64,000 bases of DNA from a virus (taxonomy: Duplodnaviria; Caudoviricetes): positions 1 through 64,000 of the IMG/VR virus record IMGVR_UViG_3300033074_000977; one strand, written 5' to 3'. Within the stretch, counting starts at the first letter, position 1. Each line of letters opens with the position of its first letter. The position numbers and the translations under genes were made by a program. Positions 4,646 to 28,478 of this stretch are shown one piece after another. A model generated the notes under the pieces. The model did no database searches. It had not been told where the DNA came from and saw only the letters and a program-made list of their open reading frames with translations.

Positions 4646-4739
4646 GTGCGCGTGACGAAATTGGTAATAGTGGGCGGGCCTAACAAACTCGCCTGAGTTT
4701 TTAATTAAGCTCTTGCAGGTTCGAGTCCTGCCGCGCACA
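4646..4739 (+). tRNA. atypical class II tRNA-like element (Leu-type body, extended anticodon arm, loop CU-AAC-AA)
   Basis: Acceptor GTGCGCG/CGCGCAC plus A discriminator; D-loop AATTGGTAA; T-arm GCAGG-TTCGAGT-CCTGC; long variable arm GAGTTT/AAGCTC; 21-nt anticodon arm instead of 17; no encoded CCA. Confidence 0.7.
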
Positions 4740-5586: not shown

Positions 5587-7563
5587 ATGCCTGATGAAGT
5601 TATGCCTGTGCCCACACCAGATGAGCTAGAACCTGATGTCGGTAAGCTGGAGTTGGATCCCGAACCTGATACCGACGCTAACACCGAACCGTATCTCGAA
5701 TGTGACAACTGCCATGACATAATCCCAGCAGGCGCGGACACTTACGAAATGTCCGACCCGCCCAACCAAACTTGGTGCGTGGACTGCTACAACGACGAAG
5801 GTAGCCACTGTGAGGGCTGTGGCAACTATGTCGAAGTCAGCAGCTTAACTGAAGTCAGTTACCTTAACTGCGGTTTTACAGGGTGGAGCACTCGTGAGGT
5901 ATGTGAGAGCTGCTTAAACAGCGATTACCGCCAATGCGAACACTGTGACGATACTTGGTTCAATAGGGACCTCCGTAACTGGGCTGGGGATGAAGCCTGC
6001 CCAAGATGTCATAATAACGCAGCCTGTAGCTGCGACGACTGCGGTGCTGAATACTGGGATGGAGACAACCATTATGCATTCTGCGAAGGCTCACCCGATG
6101 ACGACAGTGACAGTTCAGCAATCCACGCGTGGGATTACGAGGTATTAAATACCTTAAACTTCCTCGGCCAACCCGCTGACAAACTATGGCTGGGTGTGGA
6201 ACTGGAAGTAGAGTGCAAGAGTGATAGTGGCTGGCATCGGGGCGAGCTGGCTGATGAAGTAGCCTATGCGATGCGCGACTTTGCGGTACTTAAATCCGAT
6301 GGCAGCCTCGATAACGGGTTCGAGATTGTCACCGCACCGGCCACTATAGAAATCCACCGTACTGAATGGACTAATCGCTTTTACGGCAAGTCCTTCATCA
6401 AGGGACTACGCAGCTGGGATGCGGGCACCTGCGGCTTGCACGTCCATATCTCGCGCAAACCGTTATCCAAGCTCACCCAAGCTAAGATCGTAGGGTTCTG
6501 TAACATCGAGGAAAACCGCACCTGGATGGAGAAACTAGCTGGGAGGACATCCAGTTACGCTGAGTTCAAGGATGTTGAGCAGCTGGGCAAGCAGTGGCGG
6601 CGGCAAAGTTCCCGCTATCGGGTAGTCAATGTCGAAAACGACGACACCCTGGAGTTCCGCATCTTCAAAGGCAGCCTCCGCCCGGAACGTCTCTGGCGTG
6701 CGCTGGAGTTCGTCCATAGTTTAGTAAAATTCTGTGAACAGACTTCCTTGGAAAAGTTACAGGCTAGCCAGTATTTGGAATGGCTGGGTAAGCATAAAAA
6801 GCTCTATCCCAGCTTGGCTGCGTTTTACTTTCCGAAAGCGGCAGCGGCTAAGCGCAACCCGAAGCAGCCAGGGTTATTTACGGTGGCGGCAGATAGTTGC
6901 CAGGGGGATGATAGTGGTAAGGGAGTTGTTACCTATGACGCTGAGCAGGAACTTGCAGCGCAACGTAAGATCGAGGAGCGTGTAGCTGAGCAGCGGCGGG
7001 CGCGGAAGGAGCGGGAACGGGAGTTGAAGCGACTGGAACGGGAACGGCTGGATGCTAGAGCAGCGGCTAGGGAGCCGGATTGGTATGGCAGTCGTGAACC
7101 TGTTGATGTGGTTGCGAGGGCGGCGGATGCCGAATTCCAAGCCTACGCTACTCCTGAGCGGATAGCTCAACGACGCGCATTTTACCAGCTGCAAATAGAT
7201 GAAGGTTCGCGGTCGGACTGGGAGGAAGTGCGTAGTTGTACACGGGGCTGTACCTGTCTAGACTGCCGTTTGATTGTGTATGTGGCTGAGTTGGTTATCC
7301 AGGAGCAGCGGGATGCAGAGGCTCAGACTGCGTATGACTACTCAGTGATGGAGGCGGTGCGGCACCTACGGCACGTAAGTGCTGCTTTTGTCAGTGTTTT
7401 ACCTGTTGAATCAACCGAACCTGCTAATCAAACCCTGACACCAACCTCAGACCTTACTGAAGCGGCTGCTGAACCTGAGCATCGGGAGGGTGGTGGAAGT
7501 GGTGTGGATAGAACCTTAACCTATGAAATGTTGGAGAACCTGTATCGGGATCTTCGATGGTAG
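5587..7563 (+). CDS. putative amidoligase (COOH-NH2 ligase, glutamine synthetase-like fold) with N-terminal Zn-ribbon repeats
   Basis: Motifs LGVELEVE, DGSL...FEIVTAP, TCGLHVHIS, RY..VN, TLEFRIFKGS; N-terminal CxxC repeats. Confidence 0.85.
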   Translation: MPDEVMPVPTPDELEPDVGKLELDPEPDTDANTEPYLECDNCHDIIPAGADTYEMSDPPNQTWCVDCYNDEGSHCEGCGNYVEVSSLTEVSYLNCGFTGWSTREVCESCLNSDYRQCEHCDDTWFNRDLRNWAGDEACPRCHNNAACSCDDCGAEYWDGDNHYAFCEGSPDDDSDSSAIHAWDYEVLNTLNFLGQPADKLWLGVELEVECKSDSGWHRGELADEVAYAMRDFAVLKSDGSLDNGFEIVTAPATIEIHRTEWTNRFYGKSFIKGLRSWDAGTCGLHVHISRKPLSKLTQAKIVGFCNIEENRTWMEKLAGRTSSYAEFKDVEQLGKQWRRQSSRYRVVNVENDDTLEFRIFKGSLRPERLWRALEFVHSLVKFCEQTSLEKLQASQYLEWLGKHKKLYPSLAAFYFPKAAAAKRNPKQPGLFTVAADSCQGDDSGKGVVTYDAEQELAAQRKIEERVAEQRRARKERERELKRLERERLDARAAAREPDWYGSREPVDVVARAADAEFQAYATPERIAQRRAFYQLQIDEGSRSDWEEVRSCTRGCTCLDCRLIVYVAELVIQEQRDAEAQTAYDYSVMEAVRHLRHVSAAFVSVLPVESTEPANQTLTPTSDLTEAAAEPEHREGGGSGVDRTLTYEMLENLYRDLRW

Positions 7564-12095: not shown

Positions 12096-12271
12096 CCGGT
12101 GGAAGATGCGGATATACTGTTAACAATCATAGCCTGTGTAGTGGTATTAGTAATCGGTAGCTGGCTGGTCAGAGTCACCTCCGATAAATCCACCCGGTTG
12201 CGTTGAGCTAAGTTAAGCTAAGTTGAGCTAAGCAGCTGCCGAAACCGTGCCCCTCCCAGCTGCTAACTGCC

Positions 12272-12335
12272 CGGGAGTCAGTACCTTACGCACCAGCTAG
12301 GCAACTGTGGTAAGGTCGTGTTAAACTGGCTCCCG
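12272..12335 (+). other. long bulged RNA hairpin
   Basis: 12272-12282/12325-12335 and 12283-12289/12310-12316 pair; one-sided 8-nt bulge. Confidence 0.55.
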
Positions 12336-12390
12336 TTGCAACGATGTGTGACTAACGAAGTTAATTAACTAACCAAGGAGATAAAACACA

Positions 12391-12570
12391 ATGCCCAAAT
12401 ACAACGTAAGTTTGACCAATGTGAAACCCGGTAAAGATGGCAAGTTGCCCGAGCCGGTAGTGATCGAAGCTCCCGACGCGCCTGCTGCTAAGGCTAAAGC
12501 GATTGCCCAGCTGAAGCCGGAAGTGAGTCAGGATGTGGAGGTGGTTGAAGTGGTCGAAGCTACGGCCTAG
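12391..12570 (+). CDS. small hypothetical protein (59 aa)
   Basis: AAGGAG SD; hand-translated. Confidence 0.65.
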   Translation: MPKYNVSLTNVKPGKDGKLPEPVVIEAPDAPAAKAKAIAQLKPEVSQDVEVVEVVEATA

Positions 12571-12585
12571 ACTTATCCACTGTGT

Positions 12586-12658
12586 AGGAGCGTCGGTTAA
12601 TTGGCTAAACCCCTGGATTCCAAACCCAGTACTCAGAGTTCGAGTCTCTGCGCTCCTG
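12586..12658 (+). tRNA. trnW: tRNA-Trp (CCA)
   Basis: Acceptor AGGAGCG/CGCTCCT; D-stem GGTT/AACC; loop TT-CCA-AA (anticodon 12620-12622); T-arm CAGAG-TTCGAGT-CTCTG; discriminator G; CCA tail not encoded. Confidence 0.9.
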
Positions 12659-12663
12659 TTGGT

Positions 12664-12793
12664 AGGGCAATGGCGGAACTGGTAGACGCGCAGGATAATA
12701 CAGGAAAGCGGGAAGCTGTCTAGTTAGTTAATAGCTAACTAGGCGGGCCAGATAAAACTCTTCCCATTGTGGGTTCAAATCCCACTTGCCCTG
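12664..12793 (+). tRNA. tRNA-like element (130 nt) with no canonical anticodon arm and a large internal insert
   Basis: Acceptor AGGGCAA/TTGCCCT; Leu-type D-arm TGGCGGAACTGGTAGACGC; T-arm GTGGG-TTCAAAT-CCCAC; between them 78 nt with GGGAAG/CTTCCC and CTAGTTAG/CTAACTAG helices. Confidence 0.7.
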
Positions 12794-12795
12794 TT

Positions 12796-13445
12796 AACCC
12801 CACCCAAGCTCTTTAACATAGTTATCCTTATCAACCCCATCCGGGGCAACCCATTGGGGGAGTGATAGCTTACTTAACGGGCGGGAAAACAACAACGTCA
12901 ACAACAATCATTCGCTGGAACTCTGACCAACCGATAAGCATCCTAGGGTGACAGCACACGAGTTTGATTGTGGGGTGGGGTTATTCGATTATGGCAGCTA
13001 TAACCTAGCTAGGTAGTGGTAGTCATGACACCGCTAAAGCTGCCACCAACATTAGCAGCACGTTCGCTATACTGCTAATCATAGACCCAGGGTAGCTAGT
13101 TAAACCTTGTTATACCCCGCGTATCTATGTAGCTCTTTGTCTTGTAGGATTTACACAGCAAGCTTTAAGGTACTTAACCAATCAGCGTAATCAACTTGAC
13201 TGATGCAGAAACCGTAGCGTCTGGTGAAATTGAATTGTCTTGAGGAAGTTGTTCAACGATAGCCAGCTGCCACAGTAGAATGCTGACGTGCAAGGGTCGT
13301 CAATTTGGAGTAGATAGAGGATTAGTATTGATTACATTGATTGGTGTGACGGTACTCGGACGCTTACTATAATTATCTTCAAGACGTTTGTGCGAACCCC
13401 TGGATCTAACTCCGGCTGATTGTTACTAAATCAGGTTTACTTTAC
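12796..13445 (+). ncRNA. candidate structured ncRNA region (one or two RNAs)
   Basis: No ORF over 60 aa; helices 12796-12804/12974-12982, 13051-13058/13072-13079, 13080-13085/13124-13129 and 17-bp 13178-13194/13328-13344; weak terminator-like stem 13416-13434. Confidence 0.55.
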
Positions 13446-13539
13446 CTGTCTTACTGGTTTAGCGAACAGCGGACATTGAAGTTGGCTCCGGGGGTTATTT
13501 ACCCGGCTACCTAACTTACCTAACTTACCGAACTTGCCA

Positions 13540-13785
13540 ATGGCAACACCTAACCATAACTCCAACGCAAAGTTAATCCAGCAGCTTCGTGCAGTAAAAC
13601 CTGTCCGTCCAGTCAAACCTTCCATTCCAGCTATCCACTGCCCAGAATGCGGTGAGCATATTGCGGGTAAGTTGGCCAAGCTGTATGTACCCGAGCTGAT
13701 TAAACTCGGTCGGATGCTGGTGCGGAAGGTTAACAAGGCCAACAAAACGGCGGCGGCGGCGGCGAATGGTGACGGGGGTGGGTAG
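13540..13785 (+). CDS. small hypothetical protein with CPEC zinc knuckle
   Basis: ATG 13540 in frame with ORF 13534..13785. Confidence 0.55.
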   Translation: MATPNHNSNAKLIQQLRAVKPVRPVKPSIPAIHCPECGEHIAGKLAKLYVPELIKLGRMLVRKVNKANKTAAAAANGDGGG

Positions 13786-13885
13786 CCTGATCACAGGATC
13801 CAGGGATCCGTTTATCTCCCCATACCCCTGGCAGCTTAGCTCAAAGCTTATACCCTAATCGTCTCACAAGATAAGGATATGAACA

Positions 13886-15517
13886 GTGGCGATGATAACT
13901 TTTGATGCACATGCACAGAACTCTTCCATAGTAACTCAGGAGGTTGAAGGAAATGACAGCAATGGCAGTAATAGCTATAGTGACAATCTTAATGGGGGTA
14001 TTGGCTGTACTAGCGCTTGTAGCAATGCAGCTACAATACTTGGCGAATATCCTAGCGAGCCGGATAGATCTAGTGAACATCAACCTGGATCTGATCCACA
14101 ACGCCCAGGAACGGCAGTTGTTGGAATTCAAGCAGTGGAACGAAACCCTGGAGGGGATCAACCAGGGCTATCCATCCTCTCCCCCGCCACCCTCGCAGCC
14201 CAACGCTTAATCGCCCAGATCCACCACCTCGCCGACCAGTACTGGGAAGAACCTGACCACGAAGCCTTAAACGTAGTACTAGCCTTCATCGCCAGCTACT
14301 TCCTGCACGAACGCAACCCCTTATGGTTACACATCGTAGGCGAATCCAGCAGCGGTAAAACCGAACTCGGTATGGCACCGGTCGCGCTGGACTATGCCGA
14401 ATTCCACCACCTTGATGATCTCACCTCCAACACCTTACTATCCGGCCTCACCAAAGGTAAAGATTCCGGTAAACGCAACAGCTTCCTGCACCGGGTAGGG
14501 ATCTTCGGCTTAGTCTACCAGGAGGACTTCACTACCTTCCTCGAAAAAGACGAGCGGATGGTCGGTGCAGTGGCAGGGCAGTTACGTAAAGTCTACGACG
14601 GTCAGCTTACCAAGGAAACCGGCGTGGAGACTCGTGACGGTAACGGTGGCTGGCAAGGTAGGATAAGTTGGATCACAGCTATGACCCCGGGCGCTGAACG
14701 GAAATGGGTGCGCCATAACCCAATGGGTGAGCGGTTCAGTATCGTGCGCTGGCGGGCCGCGCGGAATCACGAGGCCGTAAGTAAGAAGGTATTACTCCAG
14801 TCAGCGGTTGAAGCCAAGCTCACCTACCTAGACGCTGATAAACAAATGAACCAGCAGATCGCTGGCCCCAGGAAATGGATCGGTTGGCTGACGCAGATGC
14901 TGATAGAAGGTGAGCGATATGCTGGGCAGCTACCTGGGAATGGGATTAACGAGGGGTTATTACGAGAGCTGGTGAATCAACTGCAAGGGTTGGATTTAAC
15001 TCCGAAGCCGGATAGCCCTAGTGAACGGCTGGTGTATGACGGTGGATTGTACGCGCTGGCTGAGGTGGTAACGCAGCTGCGCACGATACCTAACCGTCCA
15101 GACGGCAGGAATATAGGTCAAGTGTTGGATAGGGAAAGCTCCGGTAGGTTGCAGCACCAGCTGATTAAGGTCGCCCGCGGGTGGGCCTACTTACACAGGC
15201 GCGAGGTAGAGGCTGCGGATATGCGGCTGGTGCAGCGAGTCGCTGAGGACAGCATACCGATCAGTAAGAAACCTATCGTGGATGCGCTGTATAAAGCGGG
15301 CCGGTCGGGTATGTGGATGGATGTGGATAGTTTGCGGCAGGAAGCTGGGTATCAGACTCAAGCGGCGCTGGTGTGGCAGTTGCAGGAATTGCTGGCGGTG
15401 GGGGTAGTGATGACCAGTGATGGGGATATACAGCGGAACTGGGAGAATCCTTACACGGAATGGAAATTAACTGAGCAGTTCGAGGAACTGTGGAGGAAAG
15501 GGGGATTGGGGAAGTAA
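13886..15517 (+). CDS. P-loop/AAA+ ATPase, probable replicative helicase (MCM/SF3-like)
   Basis: Walker A GESSSGKT; Walker B-like YQEDF; sensor/Arg-finger-like MGERF; low-complexity acidic N-terminus. Confidence 0.7.
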   Translation: MAMITFDAHAQNSSIVTQEVEGNDSNGSNSYSDNLNGGIGCTSACSNAATILGEYPSEPDRSSEHQPGSDPQRPGTAVVGIQAVERNPGGDQPGLSILSPATLAAQRLIAQIHHLADQYWEEPDHEALNVVLAFIASYFLHERNPLWLHIVGESSSGKTELGMAPVALDYAEFHHLDDLTSNTLLSGLTKGKDSGKRNSFLHRVGIFGLVYQEDFTTFLEKDERMVGAVAGQLRKVYDGQLTKETGVETRDGNGGWQGRISWITAMTPGAERKWVRHNPMGERFSIVRWRAARNHEAVSKKVLLQSAVEAKLTYLDADKQMNQQIAGPRKWIGWLTQMLIEGERYAGQLPGNGINEGLLRELVNQLQGLDLTPKPDSPSERLVYDGGLYALAEVVTQLRTIPNRPDGRNIGQVLDRESSGRLQHQLIKVARGWAYLHRREVEAADMRLVQRVAEDSIPISKKPIVDALYKAGRSGMWMDVDSLRQEAGYQTQAALVWQLQELLAVGVVMTSDGDIQRNWENPYTEWKLTEQFEELWRKGGLGK

Positions 15518-21502: not shown

Positions 21503-24052
21503 ATGGAAACCCAAGAAATCATCGACCATTTCGAGCGGCTCCGCTGCACTGCCAAGTACCCTGTCTTCTACTTAACTGGGCAGGCAGGCACCGGCAAAAC
21601 GTACACCATCAAACAAGCTATCGAGCAACAACCGAACTTCGCGCAGCTCGCAGCATCCACCGGTATCGCAGGCGTGAACCTGGGCACCACCACCATCAAC
21701 CAAGTGCTGAAATATTTCAACACTGACTCGCTGCTGGACTCCTACCAATCCGGGCAGCTGACTATGAACTTACGTAAAGTGCGCAAGTTCAACCGCTTTC
21801 TGGTGATCGACGAAGCATCAATGATCCCCTATCAACAGCTGGATATATTCCTCTGGGCGTTGGATGAGATCAATGCTGATGTGGAGGATGACGCGCGGTT
21901 AGGTTTAATCCTCATCGGAGATTTTTGCTTGGGTTACGGCACTAAAGTGATGATGGCCGATGGTAGCCTAAAAGTTGTTGAAGACATTAAAGCAGGCGAT
22001 CAAGTAATGGGACCGGATAGCAAGCCCCGCAATGTGCTCAGAACTACGACAGGATTGGATACTTTGTATCAAGTTAACCAGACTAACGGTGATTCTTATG
22101 TAGTTAATTCTAAACACCCAATTGTACTGCGGCGTAGTAAGGATGGTAAAGCTTCGTGCGATGGGCGTTGGCCCAGATACCCTGACTACGCTGATAACTT
22201 AACGTTAACTGCGCCGGAACTGCTGTTAAAATCCGATAAATTTCGTTCGTGTTTCTTTGGGTATAAAGCAGGCGTGGTTAAGTTTCCTGTGCGACAGGCA
22301 CCTACTTTAGATCCGTATTTTGTAGGCTTATGGCTAGGCGATGGCGACAAAGATGCGCCTCGAATAACTACGGCTGACCCGGAAATTGTAGATTACTTGG
22401 AATCCTTGTCGAATGTGTACGGATTGAATCTCACAATTAGTGGGTGGGATAGAACATCCGCAGTACGGATAGGAATTACACATGGGAAATCCAAGGGTAA
22501 TATTCCCAACCCTATACGAACCAAACTAAGCGCGTTAAGCTTGTTCAATAGCAAGCACATACCTGATGATTATTTGTATGCCATAGAAGCTGCTAGGTTG
22601 GATCTACTTGCAGGACTTATAGATTCTGACGGAAGCTTTACAGGTAATCGTTACACCATTGCTTGTGGGATAGAAAAGTTGGCTCACCAAATAAAACAAC
22701 TAGCTGATCAATTAGGTTTCAGGTCTACTATTCAACCAGTAAAAAGCGGGCCATACGCCAACAATCCAAATAAGTCTATGTGGAGGATTTCAATTGGGGG
22801 TGACACTTGGAGAATCCCCTGTAAGGTTGCCAGAAAAGTATCCAACCCTAGATCACTTGGACGCACGCGCATAGAGTCTAAGGTTTCAATTGAACGGTTA
22901 GGGCGCGGTTTGTATGCAGGATTTGAAACCGATGGTGATCATTTGTTTCTGCTGGCAGACGGTACTGTTACCCATAACTGCCAGCTCCCCCCAGTCCCGG
23001 GCAATCTCATCGTCGCGGGCAAACCAGTCCTAACCAAAGATGGTCAGCGCAACGTCAAGGAACCTACCCCCTGGGCGTTTAAGTCTGAGTTGTGGAGTAG
23101 GTTCGAGGAAGAAGGCCATATTATTAAGCTGGAAAAGATCTACCGACAATCCGATCCGACCTTCCTCAATGGTATTAACGCCATCCGCAAGGGACTGGGT
23201 AAATCAGGAGTGAGTTACCTCGCCGCCGCTGGGGTTGAGTTCACGCGCGAGCTGGATAACTACTTCGACGGCACCACCATCGTAGGCAAGAACGAGGAAG
23301 TAGATCGGATTAACAAGATCCGGTTGAACCAGCTGGAAGGTAAGACCCAGCAGCTACCTAGTACACGCTGGTGGGCAGGGGAAGTGTTGGGCTGGAAACA
23401 ACCCAGCGAATGGCAGTACATCCCCGAGCAGTTGGAGTTAAAGCTGGGTGCGTATGTGATGATATTGAGTAACTTGAAGGATCCGCTGACAGGGCGGATG
23501 GAAGCTGCGAATGGAGATTGTGGGTGGGTCAGGGAGATCACTCAGCTGCGTGTGCCTGTGTATGGTGCGCCAGATCCTGAGTCTGATGATCCCACAGCAC
23601 CTCCTACGATTATCTCAGAGGAGATCCAGTGGGTGGTGCGCGTAGAGTTAGTCCGCCGCCCTGATGAACTCGTCACCATCCCAGTAGTCAAACGCAACAT
23701 CGAATCTCGGCATGACGTTGACGACGTACTTAAAACACATCCTAAATTCAACCGCGACGAAGCTGGCAACCCTAAGAAGATCCGTAATTCAATGGGTCGG
23801 TCGGTCTGGTGTTTAGGCACGATTGAATACTTCCCATTGCGGTTGGCTTACGCTACTACTACACACAAGTCGCAAGGGTTGTCATTGGACAGGATCCAGA
23901 TTGATCCGCGCGGGCACTTTATGGGACAACCGGCTATGGCGTATGTAGCGTTGAGTCGCGGGCGCACGCCGGAAGGGATTAAGATCGTGGGGAATAGTAG
24001 TTTATTTGCGGAGCGGGTGCGGCTTGATGAGGCTGTGCGGCGCTTCGTTTAG
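21503..24052 (+). CDS. Pif1/RecD-like SF1B helicase interrupted by an intein
   Basis: TGQAGTGKT, ASTGIAG, IDEASM, GDF^CQLPPV, AYATTTHKSQG, YVALSRGR. Confidence 0.9.
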   Translation: METQEIIDHFERLRCTAKYPVFYLTGQAGTGKTYTIKQAIEQQPNFAQLAASTGIAGVNLGTTTINQVLKYFNTDSLLDSYQSGQLTMNLRKVRKFNRFLVIDEASMIPYQQLDIFLWALDEINADVEDDARLGLILIGDFCLGYGTKVMMADGSLKVVEDIKAGDQVMGPDSKPRNVLRTTTGLDTLYQVNQTNGDSYVVNSKHPIVLRRSKDGKASCDGRWPRYPDYADNLTLTAPELLLKSDKFRSCFFGYKAGVVKFPVRQAPTLDPYFVGLWLGDGDKDAPRITTADPEIVDYLESLSNVYGLNLTISGWDRTSAVRIGITHGKSKGNIPNPIRTKLSALSLFNSKHIPDDYLYAIEAARLDLLAGLIDSDGSFTGNRYTIACGIEKLAHQIKQLADQLGFRSTIQPVKSGPYANNPNKSMWRISIGGDTWRIPCKVARKVSNPRSLGRTRIESKVSIERLGRGLYAGFETDGDHLFLLADGTVTHNCQLPPVPGNLIVAGKPVLTKDGQRNVKEPTPWAFKSELWSRFEEEGHIIKLEKIYRQSDPTFLNGINAIRKGLGKSGVSYLAAAGVEFTRELDNYFDGTTIVGKNEEVDRINKIRLNQLEGKTQQLPSTRWWAGEVLGWKQPSEWQYIPEQLELKLGAYVMILSNLKDPLTGRMEAANGDCGWVREITQLRVPVYGAPDPESDDPTAPPTIISEEIQWVVRVELVRRPDELVTIPVVKRNIESRHDVDDVLKTHPKFNRDEAGNPKKIRNSMGRSVWCLGTIEYFPLRLAYATTTHKSQGLSLDRIQIDPRGHFMGQPAMAYVALSRGRTPEGIKIVGNSSLFAERVRLDEAVRRFV
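21926..22978 (+). mobile_element. intein with LAGLIDADG homing endonuclease (351 aa)
   Basis: Starts CLGYGTKVMMADG, ends VTHN before Cys+1; motifs VGLWLGDG and LAGLIDSDG; inserted in helicase motif III. Confidence 0.92.
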
Positions 24053-25477: not shown

Positions 25478-25710
25478 GTAACATCTACAGCACTAATGAG
25501 CGTAACCCAGAGGCCGACAACACTGAGGCATCTCAACTACTCAAGATCATCTACGATGAGTCTGAATGCGAGTTAGGTTATGACAGTGAGCTACTAACTA
25601 ACTGGGAGCGTGAGTTCCTGGAGTCGGTAGACAGCAACCTAGCTCGGGGTTGGAACGTAACCCAGAAACAACTTTTCAAACTCCGTGACATAAAGGATAA
25701 ACTTCTATGA
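25474..25710 (+). CDS. hypothetical protein
   Basis: LTNWEREFLES...TQKQ motif; ATGA overlaps at both ends. Confidence 0.7.
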   Translation: MSNIYSTNERNPEADNTEASQLLKIIYDESECELGYDSELLTNWEREFLESVDSNLARGWNVTQKQLFKLRDIKDKLL

Positions 25711-28478
25711 CACCAAAACCTCACACTTGCTCGTCGTGCCTTTTAGCTGACACCCCCGGCTGCACCGGCTTCATGCCAGCCCCCGAGGGTAAAGGTTTAA
25801 TCCCGCTTCTCGTAACGGCAGAGGCTTTAGGCGAGAATGAGGCACGCGATTCAAAACCGCTACGTCCCTATGCGGAATCTGGATCTCTATTTGAACGTGC
25901 GTTACGTTCAGTAGGAATCCAGCGCGAGCAAATAATCGTAACCAACATCATAAAATGTCGGCCTCCGGCTAACCGGCTCGCTGGCGAATACTACGAGCAG
26001 CCAGCTATTGAACACTGCCGACAATACTTCGACGCCGAAGTATCCCAATACAAACCCAAAGCTATCCTGGCAATGGGTGCGATACCATTCAAGTATCTAA
26101 CCGGGATGTCAGGTCACAAGCAAAACCTCGAATACGTGCGTGGCTACCCGGTAGAATCTATCTGGTATCCAGGGATCCCCGTGATCGGCACGTTCCATCC
26201 GTCGTATATCCGACGTGGCGCATCTGAGATGTTTCCGGTGTTGGTTCACGATCTGCATAAAGCGTTACAGATTGCCAAAGGAAAATTACCCTGGACAACT
26301 GCGCCTGAACAGGTAACTTACCAGCTAGGCGGAGTAGCTGAATTAAAGCAGATGTTGGATATACTTAGATCCCAACCTGACAGACTGCTGGCCTACGACA
26401 TCGAAACCCGTGAGTCAGCTAAAACCAACGAAGACGAATACGATTCGTTGTCGCCTAACGCTGAGATCGAATTAGTCCAATTATCCATCGCCCCAACCAC
26501 CGGGCTGGCTGTGTATTGGAACAGCGATACTATCCCCTTACTTAAAGAGATCTTCGCTACCGCTAACCCCAAATCAGCCTTCAATGGATGGTTATTTGAT
26601 AATAGAGTCCTTGAGGCTAAAGGTTTAACCCTCAACGGAGAACTCCGTGACGCAATGGCAGCATGGCATCATTTGCAACCAGACTTACCAGCTAACTTAC
26701 AATTCGTCTCATCGTTCTACGGTATGCCTCGTCCTTGGAAACACGAGATGGGTGCGGATTTAGTCACCTATGGGATCCGTGACGTGGATGCGGTGCAACG
26801 TATTGAGTCTAAGATTAACTCTGACCTAGCCCAAATGAAGATCCATGACGGCTATAAAAACTACGTAGTCGGTTTACGTCCTATCTTGAAAGCTATGGAG
26901 GAGCGTGGAATTGGCCGGGATCAACAAGCGATTGACGAATTAAAACTATGGATCGAACAGGAGAAGGTGAGGTTGAACGCTGAGATCCAGCAGTTAGCTC
27001 CAGCTGAGATTAAACCTGTTCAGAGATGGACTAGCTGGCCGCTAGACCTATCCGAAGCTCGCAAGACTTGGGCAGAAGCCAACCCCTACATCCCGATCTC
27101 CGTGAAAACTGGTAAGCCTTTGAAGGCTAGGATACCGGTGGTCAAGATCGAAGATCTGCGGTTGGCTGTAACCCAAGCAATGCATCCCGTAGGTGTGGGC
27201 GCACACGATATGTTAGCCACAGTTGAGAGATTAGGATATAAGTTCCATCCAACTAAACAAGAACTATGTAAAGAGCTACCGTTCCTTCCAGGATCCACGC
27301 AGCATCTAATGGCTTACCTACGTCACCAAGGTGTCGCAGTGCCTAAAGATCTGGACGGTAAAGATACCACCGGTCGTAGCGAGTTAGATAAATTAGTTAA
27401 AAAACTCAACCGCTCAACCAAACCCAACGAACAGGAAGCGGCCACGTTTATCAACAAGGTACTGGAATATCGCAAGCTGCATAAAGTTCTAGCTACCTAT
27501 ATCGAAGGCTGGAAGAACGGCCCGGACGGTCGGATCCATACTACGTTTACGTTCTTACCGGCTACAGGTCAGCTCTCCTCCCGCAACCCTAATGTTCAGA
27601 ACGTAGGCAAAGGTTCCGAATTAGCAAAGCGTTTTCGCAGAACTATCACACCAGCCCCGGGGCACGTGCTAGTCGAAGCTGATTACAAATCGTTCCACGC
27701 TTTGACATTAGGCTTCGAGGCGCAAGATCCAGACTATATGCGGTTAGCCCGACTGGATTGTCATAGTTTCGTGGCAGCGCATCTATTGAAACTACCCGAA
27801 GCTACATCGGGTAAACTGATTGAAATGTCCGACGCTGAAATGTTGGACTTCTTCAAATGGTTCAAATCAGATCCTGAACGCAAGCTGATCCGTGACAAAA
27901 AGGCGAAGCCTAGCATTCTCGGTATAGGTTTCGGCTTAGGCAAACACAAACTCTACACAATGAACGAAGATTCGTTCGCCAACGAAGCCGAAGCTGGCAA
28001 GGTCATCACGTTAATCCGTGGAATCTTTCCTAAAGTGTTTGAGTTCCAGGAAAACGTTAAACAACTAGCTTATCGTCAAGGTTGGTTACGGTCACGCTGG
28101 GGTTTTGTGCGTAGGTTTTCAGATGTGTATCGGTACAACTCCAGATCTCAAGGGTTGACTGCGGGAATGGATGCTGAAGCTTGTATCGCATTCCTACCAG
28201 CTAATTCAGCGTTCGGCAAAGTGCGTGAGGCAATGTTGGACTTCGAGCGCGAGGGGTTGAACGTTAGGTATAACTGCGTGTCCAGCGTTCACGATTCGAT
28301 TATATTTGACGTACCTGGAACGTTGATCGACGAAGCGTTGCCTAAGATCAAGGAGATAATGGAGCGGCCTGGAAGTATGTTGGTGGATCCGGTTGTGGCA
28401 CCGAATGGTTTACATTGTGAGGTTGAGTTGTCTATTTCGGACAGATCCTGGGCTGATCTACAGGAGGTGAAAGTATGA
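25707..28478 (+). CDS. polA: family A DNA polymerase with N-terminal UDG-family-4-like and 3'-5' exonuclease domains; divergent active site
   Basis: UDG-like: CxxC, AEALGENE, NIIKCRPP.NR, HPS. Exo: YDIET, N...FD, YGIRD. Pol: TGQLSS.NPNVQN, ADYKSFH, AK...LGIGFG, VHDS. Confidence 0.88.
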   Translation: MTPKPHTCSSCLLADTPGCTGFMPAPEGKGLIPLLVTAEALGENEARDSKPLRPYAESGSLFERALRSVGIQREQIIVTNIIKCRPPANRLAGEYYEQPAIEHCRQYFDAEVSQYKPKAILAMGAIPFKYLTGMSGHKQNLEYVRGYPVESIWYPGIPVIGTFHPSYIRRGASEMFPVLVHDLHKALQIAKGKLPWTTAPEQVTYQLGGVAELKQMLDILRSQPDRLLAYDIETRESAKTNEDEYDSLSPNAEIELVQLSIAPTTGLAVYWNSDTIPLLKEIFATANPKSAFNGWLFDNRVLEAKGLTLNGELRDAMAAWHHLQPDLPANLQFVSSFYGMPRPWKHEMGADLVTYGIRDVDAVQRIESKINSDLAQMKIHDGYKNYVVGLRPILKAMEERGIGRDQQAIDELKLWIEQEKVRLNAEIQQLAPAEIKPVQRWTSWPLDLSEARKTWAEANPYIPISVKTGKPLKARIPVVKIEDLRLAVTQAMHPVGVGAHDMLATVERLGYKFHPTKQELCKELPFLPGSTQHLMAYLRHQGVAVPKDLDGKDTTGRSELDKLVKKLNRSTKPNEQEAATFINKVLEYRKLHKVLATYIEGWKNGPDGRIHTTFTFLPATGQLSSRNPNVQNVGKGSELAKRFRRTITPAPGHVLVEADYKSFHALTLGFEAQDPDYMRLARLDCHSFVAAHLLKLPEATSGKLIEMSDAEMLDFFKWFKSDPERKLIRDKKAKPSILGIGFGLGKHKLYTMNEDSFANEAEAGKVITLIRGIFPKVFEFQENVKQLAYRQGWLRSRWGFVRRFSDVYRYNSRSQGLTAGMDAEACIAFLPANSAFGKVREAMLDFEREGLNVRYNCVSSVHDSIIFDVPGTLIDEALPKIKEIMERPGSMLVDPVVAPNGLHCEVELSISDRSWADLQEVKV

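Follow-up and report, generated by a model that had tools for sequence, protein, structure and literature searches.

A phage tRNA-Leu-shaped gene carrying a folded insert in place of its anticodon arm, and the structured RNA that follows it

To our knowledge, the non-decoding tRNA-shaped RNAs of phages T4 and T5 have been known for decades without a function ever having been found for them. One is RNA1 of T5 (AY543070, 30501-30644), annotated as a 'tRNA-like stable RNA with unknown functions', and another is species 1 RNA of T4 (rnaC; AF158101, 70908-71046), a stable RNA encoded at the end of a tRNA cluster. Literature searches returned no functional account of such phage RNAs, and no description of the class other than these T4/T5 stable RNAs and general papers on tRNA mimics. 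Two other tRNA-like units are involved in maturing the RNAs next to them. Plant mitochondrial t-elements, which are tRNA-like and have a conserved T-arm, direct cleavage by RNase P and RNase Z, which produces ends of mRNAs (PMC1920247), and excision of the tRNA-like mascRNA from the 3′ end of MALAT1 matures the long RNA (PMC11693755).

The window analysed here, a 64-kb stretch of DNA, is the first part of an IMG/VR virus record of 73,728 bp that is rated complete. The genes at ~1-30 kb lie on the + strand, and include those for a ParB-like protein, a PD-(D/E)XK nuclease, an intein-bearing helicase and a family A polymerase fused to a UDG domain. The helicase (21503-24052) is PIF1/RecD-like and is split by an intein with Hint and LAGLIDADG parts, while the UDG-superfamily domain of the family A DNA polymerase (25707-28478) is N-terminal. 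BLAST of the element region and 20 kb of the window found no DNA-level relatives in the phage collection, the only matches being generic D-arm similarity to tRNA-Leu genes. A tRNA-Trp(CCA) gene ends 5 nt upstream of the tRNA-shaped element that is the subject of this report (Table 1). From the upstream ORFs to the tRNAs, the + strand has no promoter-like site, so the transcripts need processing. The genome has a second odd tRNA at 4646-4739 (+), a 94-nt gene called as Val(AAC) with 33.1 bits, which combines a class II body and long variable arm with an A34 anticodon and a 6-pair anticodon stem containing a C-A mismatch.

Table 1. Features of the tRNA-shaped element and its immediate surroundings (positions in the 64-kb window)
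Feature	Position	Strand	Basis and remarks
tRNA-Trp(CCA)	12586-12658	+	Apparently canonical; ARAGORN; Rfam RF00005, 50.3 bits
Whole tRNA-shaped element, 130 nt	12664-12793	+	Rfam RF00005, 35.3 bits, anticodon arm skipped; acceptor/T-arm closure by script
Acceptor stem 5′ strand, AGGGCAA (A1-U72 pair)	12664-12670	+	7/7 Watson-Crick pairs with 12786-12792
U8, G9, leucine-type D-arm GCG-GAACUGGUAGA-CGC, G26	12671-12690	+	Read from the sequence
Purine-rich linker, 19 nt, in the place of the anticodon arm	12691-12709	+	Unpaired in minimum-energy and centroid folds
Insert domain, 56 nt	12710-12765	+	-23.5 kcal/mol; z = -3.8 (+ strand) versus z = -1.4 (- strand)
AUU spacer; its last base is U48, which forms the Levitt pair with A15	12766-12768	+	Read from the sequence; U here in 211/222 class members
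T-arm, GUGGG-UUCAAAU-CCCAC	12769-12785	+	Sequence, Rfam alignment, script closure
Acceptor 3′ strand UUGCCCU (12786-12792) and discriminator G (12793)	12786-12793	+	CCA not encoded
Conserved structured non-coding RNA, ~0.65 kb	12794-13460	+	Begins right after the discriminator; no Rfam match

The Rfam tRNA model (RF00005) scores the element above its gathering score of 29 (E = 3e-5 for the region), and aligns the acceptor stem, D-arm and T-arm at high posterior probability while skipping 17 anticodon-arm positions over a 68-nt insert. Within the 5′ half, U8 and G9 occupy 12671-12672, the D-arm proper (GCG-GAACTGGTAGA-CGC) 12673-12689, and G26 position 12690; the same D-arm is also present in annotated or ARAGORN-called phage tRNA-Leu genes. 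The partners of the tertiary core are all in place (U8, A14, A15-U48, G18G19 with the T-loop, T54-A58 and C56). The element is more than a chance match, and the tRNA-shaped gene is confirmed as real. Its decoding part is another matter. Between G26 and the T-stem lie 78 nt (12691-12768) that replace the anticodon arm, the 5-bp stem with a 7-nt loop and U33 is absent, and no TCCTG complementary to the CAGGA sequence occurs anywhere inside the element. Default ARAGORN makes no tRNA call, and a canonical decoding tRNA was ruled out on this result and on the arm skipped by Rfam. The discriminator is G73 and not the A73 of tRNA-Leu. In bacteria A73 is an identity element for LeuRS, and the G at this position weakens any idea that the RNA is leucylated.

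The insert domain has a 6-bp base helix (GGGAAG 12710-12715 / CTTCCC 12760-12765) enclosing a 14-bp hairpin with three G-U pairs (12716-12729 / 12733-12746) and a 13-nt internal loop (12747-12759). None of 200 shuffled sequences folded as well, and the difference in z-score between the two strands indicates that the structure is specific to the + strand RNA. The first-pass annotation, made from the letters alone, had described this architecture, and the description was confirmed at every coordinate, including the tRNA-Trp spacing, the missing TCCTG and the lack of a G3-U70 pair. Its further argument, that the helices of the insert are a sign of selection, is weakly supported, by thermodynamics and strand asymmetry; the insert has no homologue in which covariation could be seen and the closest relative of the window lacks the element. 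Judged from its sequence, the element is best explained as a tRNA-Leu-derived gene that no longer decodes and that keeps all the parts recognised by tRNA-processing enzymes.

Several known identities were rejected. A tmRNA is excluded by the pair at position 3-70, which is G-C and not G-U, by a D-arm that is full and not degenerate, and by the tmRNA mode of ARAGORN (-m), which finds nothing; the first-pass annotation was right to set a tmRNA tRNA-like domain aside. For a miniature tmRNA-like molecule that enters stalled ribosomes, the tRNA-like top half without an anticodon would be suitable, and two frames, read from the sequence, stay open from the D-arm to stops within the hairpin. About ten open codons are given by chance alone, however, and with the same pair, D-arm and ARAGORN result against it this reading is scarcely credible. 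A YrlA or Y RNA tRNA-like domain, whose permuted topology puts the ends at the position of the anticodon stem, was ruled out since the element ends in its acceptor stem and has no such Rfam match, and the skipping-rope tRNA-like RNA families tLRNA-1 to -3 differ from it in connectivity. With E allowed up to 10, the region 12100-13900 matched no further Rfam family. The idea of a phage attachment site at the DNA level was also rejected, as both tRNA halves are present and pair with each other, and the element is internal to a complete genome of 73.7 kb.

Homologues of the ParB-like protein encoded upstream and of the 543-aa protein encoded downstream led to syntenic relatives, giving seven lineages including that of the window. 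In all seven, the first feature in the gap between the two genes is an element with acceptor-stem and T-arm closure, ranging in length from 59 to 130 nt. The window element, with its 78-nt insert, is the longest at 130 nt. The others are a 72-nt element having an anticodon arm with a 6-nt loop or tetraloop (L232), a 73-nt element with the odd loop UCUAGUA (L124), a 108-nt element with a doubled D-arm (L125), a 128-nt element with a long unrelated middle (L129), a 59-nt element from which the anticodon arm is wholly absent (L230), and a 101-nt element with a leucine-like D-arm and a hairpin insert (L233). In the L125 element (7126-7233 of that locus) the order is acceptor 5′ strand, first D-arm, partial arm, second D-arm, anticodon arm (loop UCGCUAA), T-arm and acceptor 3′ strand. 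The middles are unrelated across the seven lineages, and what is constant is the acceptor/T-arm module, usually with a D-arm.

The same seven lineages share a second feature. A perfect long-range helix of 9-12 bp has its 5′ strand 0-2 nt after the discriminator and its partner ~110-240 nt downstream (7/7). The paired strands differ in sequence from lineage to lineage, for example TAACCCCACCC/GGGTGGGGTTA, TAACCCCAACCT/AGGTTGGGGTTA and TTGAAAACCTTA/TAGGGTTTTCAA, and yet they pair, so the helix is supported by covariation. In the window this helix (12795-12805 / 12973-12983) closes the first part of the non-coding RNA listed in Table 1. Compared with L232, that RNA lies in 1.2 kb of 93% identity and is near-identical over long stretches; at ~13050-13085 one hairpin has been swapped for a different hairpin. 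It is a candidate for a new large phage RNA. The linker, loop and hairpin of the element are no more complementary to the downstream RNA than expected by chance, 96-153 of 200 shuffles being equally good, and an antisense role was rejected.

The closest relative of the window, L232, is 89% and 93% identical on the two sides of the slot, and the homology breaks inside it. In place of window positions 12555-12768 (214 nt, comprising the end of a small ORF, tRNA-Trp and most of the element), L232 has 107 unrelated nt, which hold a single odd tRNA of 72 nt. New at this locus is the synteny of slot and helix, in which tRNA-like cassettes abut a conserved RNA.

The reading put forward here, with a probability of roughly 45%, is that the element serves as a tRNA-derived processing module, which RNase P and RNase Z would excise, thereby generating the downstream RNA's 5′ end. 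It would be transcribed jointly with the upstream genes and tRNA-Trp. RNase P would then cut at 12663/12664, and a 3′ endonuclease would cut after the discriminator, at 12793/12794; this second cut is assigned to RNase Z because CCA is not encoded. The latter cleavage would place the 5′ end of the ~0.65-kb RNA at the foot of its first helix. The excised 130-nt RNA would be a by-product, perhaps stable and perhaps given CCA, and its insert a tolerated or stabilising cargo that is unselected at this locus. On the simplest account, selection at the slot would act on recognition by tRNA-processing enzymes.

Slot synteny, the abutting first helix, the exchange of cassettes between the window and L232, and the missing promoter all count for the processing module, as does the contrast between an anticodon arm that is gone and a perfect set of everything that RNase P, RNase Z and the CCA-adding enzyme require. 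The plant t-elements may serve as a precedent by analogy. The intact top half, the conserved slot, its interchangeable contents and the abutting helix are established, and it is from these that we infer the cleavages and their role. Since the tRNA-Trp upstream can supply recognition by RNase P but not the cut at 12793, the argument rests on the 3′ cut. Among the options listed in the first-pass annotation, an elbow mimic for RNase P/CCA processing and a processing tag for the downstream RNA are the ones that the synteny favours. For processing, however, nothing more than a plain tRNA or a minihelix would be required, which leaves the leucine-type D-arm and the strongly folding 56-nt domain unexplained by the module.

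Exact scans of viral and metagenome contigs for the D-arm/insert junction, the T-arm/acceptor and acceptor/D-arm segments and the hairpin gave no related match, and a related-locus search seeded with the 543-aa neighbour protein returned no loci. The wider architecture is another case. The first-pass annotation had proposed searching for homologues by D- and T-arm patterns with variable spacing, and the approach succeeded in showing that the architecture is common in uncultured phages, while the element's own insert stayed unmatched. If the T5 RNA1 type is taken as an architecture class and not as a homology family, the element is a sequence-unique new member of it on four features: it is phage-encoded, it lies beside a tRNA, its tRNA top half includes a leucine-type D-arm, and a large insert stands where the anticodon would be.

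A pattern joining a leucine-type D-arm to a T-loop 60-90 nt away had at least 119 matches in viral contigs. Among the 119 matches listed, 100 have at least 6/7 acceptor pairs, and 83 of these 100 have A73. Scanning with the commonest 5′ half (AGTCAGG plus the D-arm) returned middles of every length from 23 to 119 nt. A general finder gave 222 elements at 165 loci, about 200 of them without a canonical anticodon arm. Across the 222, U8 is present in 100%, U48 in 95%, A73 in 90% and the A1-U72 pair in 71%, the last being the pair found in the window element. Canonical tRNA-Leu genes make up 20 of the 222; they come from the same loci, differ from the rest in acceptor stem and D-arm, and have regular anticodon and variable arms. 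A convincing tRNA call was obtained for none of the AGTCAGG-type elements in the finder set. Most class elements lie between co-oriented ORFs, away from tRNA clusters, and start codons are enriched 10-29 nt downstream of them (26% versus 10% in the control). ORF clustering within 3 kb of 100 class members revealed no shared family of neighbour proteins beyond close relatives.

The class also bears on a suggestion of the first-pass annotation, that the element might be a real tRNA whose anticodon arm is restored by splicing out a small unconventional intron. The intron mode of ARAGORN does give a single weak solution for the element, a tRNA-Phe(AAA) with a 56-nt intron at 12697-12752, but the stem that it restores, CAGGA/UCUUC, contains both a C-C mismatch and a G-U pair, a leucine-type body does not fit with a variable loop of 5 nt, 56 nt is far under group I size, and no intron family, group I included, is matched in Rfam at E up to 10. 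We know of no use in bacteria of an AAA anticodon with A34. Run on the first 100 class elements, the same mode returned 34 different and unrelated anticodons, which rules out a common spliced tRNA, and the suggestion was dropped as very improbable. A tRNA-Leu(UAA) of the type that carries a group I intron was separately ruled out, there being no Rfam intron match, an insert of 56-78 nt, and a CAGGA without its complement.

Class middles are 80-100% identical between loci whose 400-nt flanks are unrelated. In the pairs L007 and L008, L145 and L076, and L225 and L033, the insert domains are identical or 93-97% identical and the 400-nt flanks are dissimilar, so that these modules are either mobile between phages or very strongly constrained. 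Covariation analysis of an insert subfamily was uninformative because its helices are invariant. In one phage contig there are at least 10 copies, and their middles differ. Arrays occur in L219 (980-3300, an IMG/VR contig), L186, L204 and L215, with up to at least 10 tRNA-Leu-shaped elements interleaved with small ORFs; the elements have a common acceptor (AGTCAGG/CCTGACT) and unrelated middles, and many of them end 15-25 nt upstream of an ATG, with an A-rich leader that has no Shine-Dalgarno sequence. Unannotated elements of the same architecture are also carried by the cultured cyanophage Pam2 of Pseudanabaena (ON014754, ~111.7-111.9 kb; 1501-1655 of locus L121), where the acceptor is GGGCGAG, the D-arm is leucine-type and the middle is ~100 nt, making it a possible bench system, and by Burkholderia phage FLC9 (L122).

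The same architecture is found in many bacterial assemblies. Those of a Saccharibacteria, a Phycisphaerales and an Amylibacter (L242, L250 and L257) have apparent chromosomal tRNA-Leu genes with a normal variable arm, in which an 8-12-bp helix and a long hairpin take the place of the anticodon arm; CCA is encoded in one. These may be the bacterial counterpart of the phage class.

Such a class raises the question of whether the excised 130-nt RNA is itself the functional product, a tRNA-scaffolded RNA acting in trans. Its top half would then give processing, CCA addition, stability and access to tRNA-binding proteins, and the insert would be the working part; alternatively, the RNA could act as a non-decoding sponge or decoy, the target of which might be a synthetase, a modification enzyme or a tRNA-targeting nuclease of a defence system. 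The first-pass annotation had likewise listed a synthetase, T-box or defence decoy as possible roles. The abundance of the architecture argues for this, and so do the positions kept across it, the different acceptor stems and D-arms of the canonical tRNA-Leu genes at the same loci, the multiple copies with different inserts in one phage, the strand-specific folding of the window insert, and the example of T5 RNA1, an annotated stable RNA of the same architecture. Conservation of inserts amid flanks that share nothing suggests that the excised RNA is functional in many phages, and most members of the wider class do not lie upstream of a large RNA; both facts weigh against the processing module. 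For the window itself, however, the insert has no homologue in the exact scans, the nearest relative L232 manages without it and gives no hint of having compensated for its absence, G73 is unlike the A73 of most of the class, complementarity to phage transcripts is at chance level, and there is no conserved partner protein. A trans-acting product is doubtful at this locus. The corresponding proposal for the class as a whole, a very large family of phage RNAs that use the top half of tRNA-Leu as a chassis for type-specific cargo domains acting in trans, is also unlikely. If it were true, the chassis would give processing, CCA addition, stability and perhaps charging, the cargoes could be decoys against tRNA-targeting defences or binders of host proteins that handle tRNAs, and the place of the element before a large RNA would be secondary.

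Rapid turnover of the slot, absence from L232, the singleton status of the element in the exact scans and its G73, off the class norm, would all be expected of a decaying tRNA-Leu pseudogene, in which an insertion or rearrangement had destroyed the anticodon and variable arms and the remainder had so far escaped erosion. Set against this are the 7/7 acceptor pairs, the 5/5 T-stem pairs, and the intact D-stem, U8, A14, A15-U48, G18G19 and T-loop, together with an insert that is unusually well folded, on the transcribed strand only, and a selective pattern that recurs in about 200 elements. Decay is disfavoured because only the decoding part is damaged and all other pairs are preserved, and a pseudogene is improbable. 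The processing module is retained as the working interpretation of the locus.

The locus amounts to a natural experiment, in that related phages swap tRNA-like cassettes in a single slot where the acceptor/T-arm module is flush with the first helix of the RNA that follows. This suggests a testable idea, that the element is a punctuation mark for RNase P and RNase Z. It is also of practical relevance to annotation, as standard tRNA finders miss such genes and leave unexplained gaps in phage genomes or, in intron mode, produce spurious calls of intron-containing tRNAs.

Of the systems described previously, T5 RNA1 was overlooked by the first-pass annotation, as were other known members of the architecture. 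At 144 nt it is close in size to the element, and it too is a phage gene among tRNA genes with an acceptor stem, a leucine-type D-arm (UGCCGGAAUUGGUAGACGG) and a T-arm, to which the Rfam tRNA model aligns only by skipping an insert (47 nt) at the anticodon loop. The two inserts have no sequence similarity. RNA1 differs in that it still has an anticodon stem, a weak one, and its variable arm forms a hairpin of its own. Its score of 24 bits is under the Rfam cut-off, compared with 35.3 for the element, and it is followed by other small stable RNAs where the element is followed by the 0.65-kb RNA. The likeness to T4 species 1 RNA is looser. Its 3′ domain has an acceptor-like helix, a perfect T-arm and a non-canonical middle, but it has no leucine-type D-arm, its acceptor stem is 8 bp, it carries a 46-nt 5′ extension, and it reaches only 17.5 bits, with the tRNA-Sec model. 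Among bacterial RNAs, tmRNA and YrlA resemble the element in keeping the tRNA elbow and the acceptor/T-arm while the decoding part is replaced. Unlike the element, tmRNA needs G3-U70 and has a degenerate D-arm, and the connectivity of YrlA is permuted; ARAGORN and Rfam place the element with neither of these RNAs.

For the proposed role, the nearest parallels lie outside phages. The plant t-elements resemble the element in being tRNA-like with a non-canonical cloverleaf, and are cut by RNase P and RNase Z to give the ends of neighbouring RNAs (PMC1920247). They belong to another domain of life and share no homology with it, and their ends were mapped experimentally, whereas the link suggested for the element comes only from the position of the downstream helix. 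The mascRNA is likewise a tRNA-like unit at the boundary of a long non-coding RNA, but it is eukaryotic, it stands at the 3′ end of the long RNA so that the RNase P cut is the one that matters, and its anticodon-arm mimic is shortened and not replaced. The architecture of the element is already known from T5 RNA1, and novelty is modest in that respect; it is moderate for the arrangement of slot and helix.
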